Below are positions 5,285 to 8,217 of a DNA stretch of 64,000 bases, piece by piece. Source of the DNA: Escherichia phage UP19; sequence record OX638288; one strand, written 5' to 3'. The notes under the pieces are model-generated. The model saw nothing but the letters and a program-made list of their open reading frames with translations. It had not been told where the DNA came from and did no database searches. The first letter of the stretch is position 1. Every line of letters begins with the position of its first letter. The position numbers and the translations under genes are program-made.

Positions 5285-5629
5285 ATGTCTAAAGTATTTT
5301 TTGGTAATGCTAAGATTATGTTCTTTGAGCAACTCAGTCTTAAAGAGGCATTGGCAGCCTTCAATCAAGAACTGGTTACTGGGTTAGATTCAAAAACTAT
5401 GGCAAGCGCGGATTTCGTTTTCGTTCAAGACCCGGATACAGGGTTTTATCGATTCATCAAATTCCGTATGAGCATGGACCCTGACTATCGTAGTGCTTAC
5501 TATGTGAGTTACGAAAATGTTATCAAAGAATTACGTGATACCTATGGACGTGCTTTGAACCCACTGAATAAGGTATATAATGCGTCCTTTTATACGAGCG
5601 GATTTATTTTAGAACAGCTACAAAAATAG
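5285..5629 (+). CDS. hypothetical protein
   Basis: 114 aa ORF with GAGGAAA ribosome-binding site. Confidence 0.5.
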   Translation: MSKVFFGNAKIMFFEQLSLKEALAAFNQELVTGLDSKTMASADFVFVQDPDTGFYRFIKFRMSMDPDYRSAYYVSYENVIKELRDTYGRALNPLNKVYNASFYTSGFILEQLQK

Positions 5630-5657
5630 TTTACAACCTCGAGAATCATGTTATAAT
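5629..5657 (+). promoter_or_regulatory. early promoter in stem-loop cassette upstream of ndd
   Basis: GTTTACAACCTCGAGAATCATGTTATAATGGTTCTCG. Confidence 0.5.
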
Positions 5658-5706
5658 GGTTCTCGTTGACTGGATAACAAAACATTAATCTACTGAGGAA
5701 ATTGAT

Positions 5707-6156
5707 ATGAATACTTATATGACTCGCGGTAACGTTCTGTCTGCTGGTGCTACTACTGTTGCTTATGTTAAGAATGGCGAATACCAAAATGGTAAGCCTT
5801 CTAAAGAAATCTCAGCTCAGCCAGGCTTCTACTTCTTTGTTAAAGGTGAAGCAGATTCTCGTGTCGTAGCCGCTCGCTTTTATGTCGGTAACCAACGTTC
5901 AGCTCAAGGTCTTGATGGTATTGTGGCTAACATCCGTAAGAAACGTTCTCAATCAGCTCGCACTATGGCAGTGAATGGTGTGGTGTATGAAGTTCTTTAT
6001 GTGCCAGCTTCTAAAATGAAACCTCTGACTACAGGCTTTGGTAAAGGTCAAATTGCAATGGCTTTCACTCGCAATCATAGTTCAGACCTTCAGACACTGG
6101 AAGAAATGAACCGTATGTTGGCCGATAACTTCAAATTCGTTCTGCAGGCTTACTAA
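5707..6156 (+). CDS. ndd: Ndd nucleoid disruption protein
   Basis: 149 aa; C-terminus ...[11 protein letters not shown]...[20 protein letters not shown] matches recalled T4 Ndd. Confidence 0.9.
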
Positions 6157-6243
6157 TGAGTAATTTCCATAACGAACATGTGATGCAATGGCACCGTCAT
6201 AATCTGAAATTAACCGGTGTCTTCGGACGCCCTTGAGGAAAAT

Positions 6244-6393
6244 ATGAATATTTTACAAGGTTTTGCTGCGGGTATTTGGACTTATCTAGGTATTTGGACT
6301 ATTACGACGGGTGAAACTTCGGTCATTTCTCAGGCCATTCCACAATTCATATTGGCATTTGTTCTGATTCTACAGGCCTTTACCAAAAAATGA
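6244..6393 (+). CDS. small hydrophobic membrane peptide (49 aa), copy 1 of tandem unit
   Basis: MNILQGFAAGIWTYLGIWTITTGETSVISQAIPQFILAFVLILQAFTKK; hairpin plus GAGGAAA ribosome-binding site. Confidence 0.5.
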   Translation: MNILQGFAAGIWTYLGIWTITTGETSVISQAIPQFILAFVLILQAFTKK

Positions 6394-6538
6394 TTAAGAA
6401 ATCTTGGGTTACTCGGTAGCCCTTTCTTCTTTATTGGTAACACTGTATTACGGAGTAATTCCCATAACGAACATGTGATGCAGTTCTATCGTAACAATCT
6501 TAAAACTAAAGGCGTCTTCGGACGCTAATGAGGAAAAT

Positions 6539-6700
6539 ATGATTATCATAGTTTTTATTGAACTTATTACGGCTATAGTCTGTTCGGTTTGCTTCTTTTT
6601 AGGTGTGTGGACCCCTGGTCAGGTATTCTTAAGTTTTCTGTTTATTGGCTGGGTTCTTTCTACTTTTGTCGGTTTACTTAAGATGATTAAAAATGATTAA
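6539..6700 (+). CDS. small hydrophobic membrane peptide (53 aa), copy 2 of tandem unit
   Basis: MIIIVFIELITAIVCSVCFFLGVWTPGQVFLSFLFIGWVLSTFVGLLKMIKND; same hairpin plus ribosome-binding-site leader as copy 1. Confidence 0.5.
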   Translation: MIIIVFIELITAIVCSVCFFLGVWTPGQVFLSFLFIGWVLSTFVGLLKMIKND

Positions 6701-6833
6701 GAAAATCTTGGGCTACTCGGTAGCCCTTGCTGCTTTATTGGTAGCACTGTATTATGGAGTAATATTCGGTCTTATCCAAGTTGTGCTTTTTATTTCCGAT
6801 GTTATTATGGTTATTCATTCACTAGTATGGTAA
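6693..6833 (+). CDS. small hydrophobic membrane peptide (46 aa)
   Basis: [46 protein letters not shown]; overlaps preceding stop; the homologous position in unit 1 (6390..6419) is frameshifted. Confidence 0.4.
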   Translation: MIKKILGYSVALAALLVALYYGVIFGLIQVVLFISDVIMVIHSLVW

Positions 6834-6837
6834 AATT

Positions 6838-8217
6838 ATGGCTGATGTAATTGATACCCTTTTTAAACAATCCTTAGATGTTTACGATGATGCTTTTACT
6901 CGTCGTGACTTAAAAAGCATTATCGACAATGAAGCGCTGGCTTACGCAATGTATACTGTCGAAAACCGCGCCATTCCAAATATGATTGACGGCTTTAAAC
7001 CAGTGCAACGTTTTGTAGTTGCTCGTTGTCTTGATATGGCTCGTGGTAATAAAGAAAAATTCCACAAACTGGCTTCTATTGCAGGTGGTGTAGCCGACCT
7101 TGGATATCACCATGGTGAAGGTTCTGCTCAGGAAGCAGGGGCTTTGATGGCTAACACATGGAACAACAACTTCCCACTGTTGGATGGACAAGGCAACTTT
7201 GGTTCTCGTTTGGTTCAAAAGGCTGCGGCCTCTCGATATATCTTTGCTCGTATTGGAAGTAACTTTGCAAAAGTTTATAAGGATACGGAATATGCTCCGG
7301 TTCATGCAGATGTTGAACACAAGCCACCGGCTTTTTATCTGCCTATTATTCCTACTGTTCTTCTTAATGGCGTTTCCGGTATTGCAACCGGTTATGCAAC
7401 TAATATTCTTCCTCATAGTTTTGATTCTGTTAAGAAAGCTGTATTGCAAGTTCTTCAGGAAAAACGAGTAACCAAGCCGAAGGTGGCTTATCCGGAATTC
7501 CGTGGTGATGTTGTTGAGATTGAACCAGGAAGTTATGAGATTCGTGGAACGTATAAGTTCACATCTCGAACCCAAATGCATATCACGGAAATCCCATACA
7601 AATACGACCGTGAAACATATGTGGCCAAGATATTAGACCCTTTAGAAGACAAAGGGTATATCACATATGACGACGACTGTGACGAGAATGGTTTCGGCTT
7701 CAAGGTAAAAATTCGTAAAGAATATGAATTACCTACTGAAGAAAATAAGAAGCACGAAAAAATCATGAAGGACTTCGGATTAATCGAACGTCGTTCACAA
7801 AACTTAACAGTTATTAATGAGAAAGGTAAGCTCAAGGTTTACGAAGATGCTGTTGAACTGATTCGTGATTTTGTTGAGGTCCGTAAGACCTTTGTACAAA
7901 AACGTATTGATGGTAAAATCATCGAAACCGAACAGGCATTTAAACTGGCACTGGCTAAAGCCACATTTATCAAAGATGTTATTGATGGTGTAGTGGTTAT
8001 CCAAGGTAAGACCCGTAAGGTTTTAACCGAAGAATTAGCCGGTAATAAAGTCTACGGCGAATACGCTGATAAACTCGTAGCAATGAATATTTTCCATATC
8101 ACGTCCGATGAAGCTAAGAAACTGGCTTTGGAAGCCAAGGCTAAGAAAGAAGAGCATCAATACTGGAAAACCACTGATGTTGTAACTGAGTATGTTAAAG
8201 ATTTGGAGGCTCTATGA
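6838..8217 (+). CDS. 52: DNA topoisomerase II medium subunit gp52 (GyrA-like)
   Basis: 459 aa (T4 gp52 442 aa); N-terminal region resembles the GyrA/ParC cleavage-religation domain. Confidence 0.9.
   Translation: MADVIDTLFKQSLDVYDDAFTRRDLKSIIDNEALAYAMYTVENRAIPNMIDGFKPVQRFVVARCLDMARGNKEKFHKLASIAGGVADLGYHHGEGSAQEAGALMANTWNNNFPLLDGQGNFGSRLVQKAAASRYIFARIGSNFAKVYKDTEYAPVHADVEHKPPAFYLPIIPTVLLNGVSGIATGYATNILPHSFDSVKKAVLQVLQEKRVTKPKVAYPEFRGDVVEIEPGSYEIRGTYKFTSRTQMHITEIPYKYDRETYVAKILDPLEDKGYITYDDDCDENGFGFKVKIRKEYELPTEENKKHEKIMKDFGLIERRSQNLTVINEKGKLKVYEDAVELIRDFVEVRKTFVQKRIDGKIIETEQAFKLALAKATFIKDVIDGVVVIQGKTRKVLTEELAGNKVYGEYADKLVAMNIFHITSDEAKKLALEAKAKKEEHQYWKTTDVVTEYVKDLEAL

Follow-up and report, generated by a model that had tools for sequence, protein, structure and literature searches.

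The interval between ndd and gene 52 in Escherichia phage UP19 (positions 6,157 to 6,837 of a 64,000-nucleotide stretch of sequence record OX638288, the whole of which is referred to here as the window) appears to hold the T4 early gene cluster stp-ac-52.1 in two diverged versions that have been joined head to tail, a reading to which we assign a probability of roughly 85%. The window comes from a JS98-like T4-type phage of the genus Dhakavirus. In T4 itself the interval is occupied by a single unit, in the order ndd-stp-ac-52.1-52, and a preliminary description of the UP19 sequence, made from the letters alone, was right in expecting ac in the T4 counterpart; unlike T4, UP19 has one and a half units. 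The two phages share the flanking genes, the gene order, an ATGA-type coupling into 52.1, a hairpin and GAGGAAAATATG ahead of ac, and the protein families PF08133, phrog_2501 and PF24129/DUF7396, and what UP19 has in excess of T4 is an stp allele, a slot gene of the family phrog_9347, a stub of 52.1 and an stp that lacks a start codon. Every component is a known gene, and the arrangement reflects the shuffling of cassettes and includes no new kind of element. The genes of the interval and of its borders are as follows:

6156-6236, plus strand: stp copy A, encoding an intact Stp of 26 amino acids (PF08133, phrog_6763)
6244-6393, plus strand: ac homologue of 49 amino acids, a predicted two-helix membrane hairpin (phrog_2501)
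6390-6459, plus strand: remnant of a second 52.1 (92% identity to 6689-6763, E=4e-27), whose ATG overlaps the ac stop codon (ATGA)
6452-6459, plus strand: recombination junction GGAGTAAT, read directly in the sequence
6451-6528, plus strand: stp copy B, start-less, 25 residues, the resident Dhakavirus/T4-type allele (PF08133)
6539-6700, plus strand: gene for a predicted two-helix membrane protein of 53 amino acids in the 'ac slot' (phrog_9347)
6693-6833, plus strand: gene 52.1, a DUF7396 membrane protein of 46 amino acids (PF24129), overlapping the end of the 53-amino-acid gene
5707-6156, plus strand: ndd, nucleoid disruption protein of 149 amino acids (PF06591 Phage_T4_Ndd), which aligns with T4 Ndd
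6838-8217, plus strand: gene 52, DNA topoisomerase II medium subunit (PF00521), the downstream boundary of the locus

Self-alignment bears out the two head-to-tail direct repeats that had been noticed at the outset. The left flanks (6151-6251 and 6446-6546) are 78% identical over 101 nucleotides and the right flanks (6399-6459 and 6703-6763) are 92% identical over 61 nucleotides, with a start-to-start spacing of 295-304 nucleotides and, in a pairwise BLAST of unit 1 against unit 2, E-values of 3e-18 for the left flank and 4e-27 for the right. The middles of the units, each of about 140 nucleotides (6247-6385 vs. 6542-6688), have an aligned identity of 51%, as compared to 48±2% for shuffled sequences. 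Repetition is confined to the stp and 52.1 flanks, and the middles are non-homologous: What had been described as a duplication of about 300 bp holds for the flanks and for the distance between them, but not for the middles, which are at the level of shuffles. Because the unit middles are unrelated, Tandem Repeats Finder reported no repeat between positions 5800 and 7200.

The identities of the repeated flanks, like the anatomy of the repeats, are direct observations. The portion that was originally taken to be a shared 'leader' is the protein-coding gene stp, with matches to PF08133 of 55.3 bits for copy A (residues 1-25 of 26) and 64.9 bits for copy B (residues 2-25) against a cutoff of 25, and the shared 'downstream motif' covers the 5' part of gene 52.1 (DUF7396).

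The junction and its mosaic origin

The two units derive from different sources. The tandem is a mosaic join, and not an in-genome duplication, because the DNA of stp A matches the Gaprivervirus UPEC01 at 96.8% identity, as opposed to just 75% for the neighbouring ndd, which is closer to JS10 (96%). The Stp A protein (W12/H13/H15/L19/T20) is identical to the Gaprivervirus allele, which is the sole Stp copy in the Gapriverviruses VR25, UPEC01 and DCP80. As to the second unit, JS10, Bp7 and most Dhakaviruses have a single unit consisting of ndd, an stp of the FYRNN allele, the 53-amino-acid gene, 52.1 and 52, and the unit of JS10 and Bp7 carries exactly the alleles of UP19 unit 2: The 53-amino-acid gene is the only slot gene in these two phages, across all the single-unit phages just named it shares about 90-92% identity with that of UP19, and codons 2-25 of stp B differ from the stp of JS10 and Bp7 solely by F4S.

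The point at which the units meet can be placed to within a few nucleotides. At the junction, 52.1 codons ~22-24 (TAYGGAGTAATA) are fused to the first codons of stp (ATGAGTAATTTC), and the single-unit relatives JS10 and Bp7 contain both of the parental junction sequences. JS98, IME281, EcWhh-1, Esco_phi_B-01 and a Logan contig share this junction with UP19. Like the repeats, the junction is shown by the sequences themselves, as are the mosaic origin and the occurrence of the tandem in related phages. One parent would have been a Gaprivervirus-like version of the cluster, with the W12/H13/H15 allele of stp, an Ac-family gene and 52.1, and the other the resident Dhakavirus version, with a T4-type stp allele, the phrog_9347 gene and 52.1. 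An illegitimate or unequal crossover at GAGTAAT, which is common to 52.1 codons ~22-24 and the start of stp, probably produced the join, and in doing so it cut the upstream 52.1 at about codon 23 and stripped the downstream stp of its ATG and upstream signals. On balance, the phage would have acquired an additional small membrane protein and would now express a different Stp allele.

Apart from UP19, tandems of this type were found only in JS98, IME281, EcWhh-1, Esco_phi_B-01, NC-G and three read-archive assemblies; GenBank has contained the sequence since JS98. An assembly artefact is unlikely because the tandem recurs in at least six independent assemblies. The Dhakaviruses JS98, IME281, EcWhh-1 and Esco_phi_B-01 have the same tandem and junction as UP19 at 98.8-100% identity, and positions 5600-6900 of the window are 99.7-99.8% identical to Esco_phi_B-01 and vB_EcoM_IME281. 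Unlike UP19, JS98 and NC-G have, upstream of unit 1, a Gaprivervirus-like 3' end of ndd and an additional open reading frame (ORF) of 57 amino acids, which suggests, from comparison of these sequences, that the form shared by the window and IME281 arose from a JS98-like form by a further exchange within the conserved 5' part of stp. The 57-amino-acid ORF encodes a cysteine-rich membrane protein (phrog_5941, E=1.6e-22) and is an optional occupant of the space between ndd and stp in some Dhaka- and Gapriverviruses, including JS98 (859-1032 of its stretch), NC-G and UPEC01 (705-878 of its stretch); it is absent from the UP19 window.

Predicted products and signals of the locus

We infer expression at this locus from intact ORFs that have ribosome-binding sites or coupled starts, and the functions attributed to the genes in UP19 are those carried over from work on T4. 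The first of these genes, stp copy A, is placed as in T4: It directly follows ndd, whose stop codon TAA overlaps the ATG of stp A (TAATG, 6154-6158; the same overlap occurs in T4), and is itself followed by ac. Stp A matches phrog_6763 (E=2e-19) and is identical to T4 Stp at 20 of 26 residues. In T4, Stp inhibits type Ic restriction enzymes (EcoprrI and EcoR124I), and this inhibition unmasks the PrrC tRNA-Lys anticodon nuclease; its N-terminal 18 residues are nearly invariant and functionally important, with loss-of-function mutations mapping to residues 4-14 (PMC3014915). When set beside the Stp/PrrC-EcoprrI system studied by the Kaufmann laboratory (PMC3014915), copy A has the length, the position and the family signature of Stp, and its residues 1-11 are those of T4, but it differs within the N-terminal 18 residues by F12W, Y13H and N15H, i.e., at positions 12, 13 and 15, in the zone of the loss-of-function suppressors. 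By analogy with T4, Stp A would be expressed, would inhibit type Ic restriction enzymes and would be sensed by the anticodon nuclease PrrC.

The two slot genes, which had been regarded as duplicates of one hydrophobic peptide, belong to unrelated families. The 49-amino-acid protein belongs to phrog_2501 (E=3.9e-20), the family that also includes T4 Ac (E=2.2e-25), to which it is 23% identical in the family alignment and matches in 17 of the 52 aligned columns of a pairwise global alignment; the columns that remain invariant when it is included in the Ac-family alignment are W, T, SV, Q, Q and A. It is 100% conserved among the phages that bear the duplication, and its next relatives are 49% identical. 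The 53-amino-acid protein is matched by phrog_9347 only (E=2.2e-25) and has counterparts in 76 phage records, and a comparison of the phrog_9347 profile with the Ac family by hhalign returned a probability of 1.5%. By these measures the 53-amino-acid protein has no detectable homology to Ac, and shares with it only the slot, the size and the prediction of two helices. Pfam has no family for either slot protein, a lone sub-threshold match to UbiA having been disregarded.

Each of the slot proteins had been credited with one transmembrane helix. Single-sequence AlphaFold2 (AF2) predictions instead yield two-helix hairpins, with helices at residues 3-22 and 26-47 of the 49-amino-acid protein (predicted local distance difference test score, pLDDT, 85) and at residues 2-20 and 26-52 of the 53-amino-acid protein (pLDDT 83). 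Ac is reported to render infected cells sensitive to acriflavine, and a block of AcrAB-TolC has been proposed (bioRxiv 10.1101/2025.06.30.662393; PMC13250531), an effect that fits the earlier suggestion of interference with host transport; the phenotype is established for the ac genes of T4 and T2 only (bioRxiv 10.1101/2025.06.30.662393). By analogy, the 49-amino-acid homologue might act as an inner-membrane protein that sensitizes infected cells to acridines, and may block efflux, and the unrelated 53-amino-acid two-helix membrane protein would be the second product of the slot.

The 46-amino-acid peptide at the end of the second unit, previously described as an overlapping transmembrane peptide, is gp52.1: It matches PF24129 at 78 bits (cutoff 27) over residues 1-46 of 46, is identical to T4 gp52.1 at 42 of 46 residues, precedes gene 52, and would be expected among the products expressed from the UP19 locus. 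Its counterpart in unit 1 is a remnant left at the junction. A deletion of one nucleotide (AAGAAATC) reduces this stub to a 9-codon ORF (6390-6419), and its homology to 52.1 ends at the junction. The single-nucleotide difference that was held responsible for the shortening (AAGAAATCTTGGG vs. AAGAAAATCTTGGG) is confirmed, but even without it the gene would be incomplete, since the junction at 6452-6459 ends it near codon 23. The stub is a relic, and the same one occurs in JS98, IME281, Esco_phi_B-01 and ERR11523140.

Four candidate regulatory features accompany these genes:

5630-5657, plus strand: sigma-70/T4-early-type promoter-like site (TTTACA-16-TATAAT with TG), the best in the region with 11 of 12 consensus matches
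6216-6231, plus strand: C(UUCG)G hairpin in the last codons of stp A (G-V-F-G-R), -9.2 kcal/mol
6406-6432, plus strand: terminator-like hairpin GGGTTACTCGGTAGCCC with a T-rich tail TTTCTTCTTT, inside the 52.1 remnant (intrinsic-terminator-like score)
6511-6526, plus strand: C(UUCG)G hairpin of the second unit, preceding the ribosome-binding site for the 53-amino-acid gene, -9.3 kcal/mol, z=-2.5

The site at 5630-5657 is likely, as a sequence-based prediction, to be the promoter of an ndd-stp-ac-52.1-52 transcript. In intact 52.1, whose corresponding hairpin lies at 6710-6726, the position of the tail reads TTGCTGCTTT, and two G-to-T changes make the tail of the stub T-rich. The hairpins, the GAGGAAAATATG ribosome-binding sites and the ORFs of 49, 53 and 46 amino acids that the preliminary description listed are all present where it had placed them. 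The C(UUCG)G hairpins have the stem GGYGTC-TTCG-GACGC, and that of stp A lies directly upstream of the ribosome-binding site of ac (GAGG, 6235-6238). Among 14 distinct T4-type sequences, 100% of cells in the stp-end hairpin are paired, as compared to 30-60% in slid controls; the four variable stem pairs shift to G-U wobble only, with no compensatory double changes. An RNA structure is therefore supported but unproven, and the pairing suggests a role at the RNA level, either in mRNA stability or in presentation of the ac ribosome-binding site, beyond the constraint imposed by the peptide. A search of positions 5500-7000 against Rfam at a permissive E-value returned no RNA family.

The start-less stp and alternative explanations

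The second copy of stp has CGG in place of ATG as its first codon, a defect that the preliminary description overlooked. Inspection of ORF lists and codon comparisons revealed neither a Shine-Dalgarno sequence nor any ATG, GTG or TTG in frame ahead of codon 9 or 10: The only in-frame starts are GTG at 6475 and ATG at 6478, and their use would drop residues 1-8 or 1-9. Residue 4 of Stp B is serine, a position that is occupied by phenylalanine or tryptophan in all of the 25+ other copies examined, including those of phages that are not of the T4 type. From these features, stp B is probably a silent relic, and it is annotated in none of the records examined. A derived state occurs in NC-G and in two metagenome contigs, in which a 31-nucleotide deletion within the 52.1 stub puts Stp in frame behind the coupled ATG of the stub (MIKKSWATVLRSNFHNEH...); a gene caller calls this fusion ORF, which has a match to PF08133, and the fused stp of NC-G has V9A and N15I in its conserved core.

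Several points weigh against our interpretation of the locus as a mosaic whose second stp has fallen silent. Neither tblastn against phages nor a look-up of contigs by exact protein recovered a donor having the exact 49-amino-acid ac as its sole copy: The nearest is 49% identical, and the exact protein was found only in phages that already carry the tandem, so that the origin of unit 1 is deduced from the stp that it carries and from the 57-amino-acid ORF in JS98 and NC-G. Moreover, the ratio of nonsynonymous to synonymous changes, which at 3:1 in second stp copies vs. 1:8 in single-copy genes suggests relaxed constraint on the former, is based on four substitutions, and with such small counts the difference has p = 0.052 (one-sided Fisher test). 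Aside from its start, stp B is also nearly intact, and it is in frame with ac past the TGA at 6391-6393, such that low-level expression by readthrough is possible.

A different view is that stp B is functional and that two Stp alleles broaden anti-restriction, with the second being made by readthrough of ac, by reinitiation or from a non-canonical start. The frame shared with ac, the intact 14-residue core and the open fusion created by the 31-nucleotide deletion, which hints that expression can be regained, are all in line with such a function. However, no ATG, GTG or TTG with a Shine-Dalgarno sequence precedes the core; the starts at 6475 and 6478 would remove residues inside the function-critical region (PMC3014915); F4S replaces an aromatic residue that is otherwise invariant; the one fused copy in NC-G has itself changed in its conserved core; and the product of readthrough would be an Stp borne on a 49-amino-acid membrane anchor, a hypothetical form. 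On balance, we regard a functional stp B as improbable.

Two further explanations concern the origin of the repeats rather than the fate of stp B. The account given in the preliminary description was of a tandem duplication of about 300 bp inside one genome followed by divergence, with the hydrophobic peptides as paralogues and a 46-amino-acid paralogue lost by frameshift, and the head-to-tail layout, the similar lengths of the units (295-304 nucleotides) and the flanks in common are what such an event would leave behind. Yet the middles resemble one another no more than shuffled sequence does, the peptides fall into different PHROG families, the divergence of the flanks is uneven (78% identity in stp vs. 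92% in 52.1), and the two stp copies have their near-identical counterparts in the single-copy genes of different genera, A in Gaprivervirus and B, over codons 2-25 and save for F4S, in JS10 and Bp7; duplication within one genome is accordingly very unlikely. Scarcely credible, in our estimation, is the possibility that the repeats are PeSL mobile cassettes, i.e., an early promoter plus a stem-loop, that insert small ORFs via mini-circles as in RB49, phi1 and further T4-like phages. A conserved stem-loop and a ribosome-binding site do precede each slot gene, and PeSL-mediated swaps are known from the neighbouring ndd.4/ndd.5 region of T4 and PST (PMC4122927; PMC2839356). As in PeSL shuffling, small and often membrane-associated ORFs have been swapped or added between conserved early genes (PMC2839356, PMC4122927); unlike in PeSL shuffling, the substrates of recombination in UP19 are conserved coding flanks (stp and 52.1) together with microhomology. 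We rejected the cassette because neither repeat has a promoter-like pair of hexamers on the plus strand, because the stem-loop lies within the coding sequence of stp, a gene with conservation at the peptide level whose peptide is encoded without the hairpin in phages that are not of the T4 type, and because the junctions lie at coding microhomologies (GAGTAAT here, ATGG in EAWsc9) away from the stem-loop. The head-to-tail joining of two diverged versions of the cluster remains the interpretation that we favor.

Other stacked slots and what they mean

Comparison across T4-type phages indicates that the conserved genes stp and 52.1 enclose a slot of variable content, which holds one small membrane-protein gene or two, as would fit the plasticity already described for T4 early regions (PMC2839356, PMC4122927). 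A tblastn search with the Ac family found 652 places in 608 records. In the Tequatrovirus REP4 the order is stp, phrog_9347 gene, a 15-nucleotide stub of 52.1, Ac-family gene and 52.1, and in the Gapriverviruses EAWsc9 and TH40 it is stp, phrog_9347 gene, a stub of 52.1 that runs into the 3' portion of another stp copy (joined at ATGG in EAWsc9), Ac-family gene and 52.1. These phages resemble UP19 in having one phrog_9347 gene and one phrog_2501 gene between stp and 52.1 and in retaining stubs, but differ from it in their junctions and in the opposite order of the slot genes, with phrog_9347 first. Tequatroviruses of the pSs-1 type have two divergent Ac-family genes in tandem between stp and 52.1, separated by a clean spacer and without relics; one encodes 51 amino acids of the MKFVHG... 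type and the other 52 amino acids of the T4 MNIAKLL... type, and this double-Ac arrangement is present in Shigella phage pSs-1 (1301-1625 of its stretch) and about 40 other Tequatrovirus records. Such phages are like UP19 in having two small membrane-protein genes in the slot and unlike it in that both belong to the Ac family and no relics are left, and they weaken the generalization that every stacking comprises one Ac-family and one phrog_9347 gene. Judged by their sequences, the stackings in REP4, in EAWsc9/TH40 and in the pSs-1-type phages are independent of the UP19-type event.

The slot and its borders also vary by loss. Mosigvirus mogra has no stp. In vB_EcoM_005 (IMGVR_UViG_2974741249) the ndd-to-52 interval spans 287 nucleotides, and after stp neither a slot gene nor 52.1 is represented by an intact ORF of 20 amino acids or more, although the genome has a tblastn match to amino acids 1-52 of the 53-amino-acid protein at 88.5%; disruption or shortening of the slot gene is possible, and 52.1 seems to be missing.

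Genes resembling stp occur outside of T4-type genomes as ORFs of 25-26 amino acids. Those of the ...[QH]RIKK[IM]LNSTNC type are mainly on viral contigs of about 49-53 kb (range ~31-53 kb), and a second Stp-like peptide (25 amino acids), also not of the T4 type, is mainly on contigs of about 43-45 kb, plus one of 4.5 kb. The core S-x-[FW]-HNEHVMQ-[FW]-[YH]-R is invariant in Stp-like peptides, and the ~44-kb phages encode GVFG without the UUCG hairpin. From this distribution, stp appears to have spread horizontally among unrelated types of coliphage.

Annotation of the interval is uneven. The known anti-restriction gene stp is missing from the closest RefSeq genome, IME281 (NC_055740), in which neither copy is annotated, and the second copy is unannotated everywhere. 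In JS98 (NC_010105), stp A is annotated and the 53-amino-acid gene is omitted; in UPEC01, an annotated coding sequence wrongly joins an upstream frame to stp as a 52-amino-acid 'hypothetical protein'; and the small interval genes of several records have evidently wrong product names (e.g., 52.1 as 'recombination endonuclease subunit' in vB_YenM_P8). What is new here is the dissection of the mosaic tandem, the unannotated stp, the start-less stp relic, the 52.1 stub, the derived in-frame fusion and the recurrence of stackings. The current understanding of the Stp and Ac systems is unchanged by these results, and their interest is modest and evolutionary.

It is tempting to view stp and 52.1 as recombination 'arms' of an expandable effector slot in which stacking is selected, with a start-less stp serving as a spare allele that small deletions can re-activate, although from the sequences compared here we consider this proposal doubtful. 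If it were true, the stacked Ac-family and phrog_9347 effectors would hit different host targets (e.g., efflux/transport or exclusion), and a phage could change or double its anti-restriction peptide when confronted with hosts that carry type Ic restriction-modification systems and PrrC. The locus raises the questions of whether the Gaprivervirus-type Stp (W12/H13/H15) differs in the type I systems that it blocks or in its triggering of PrrC, and whether the Ac family and phrog_9347 are functionally distinct. For the evolution of these phages, it affords a nucleotide-level view of how small membrane genes come to be stacked, through conserved neighbours and microhomologies of 4-10 nucleotides, in several lineages independently.

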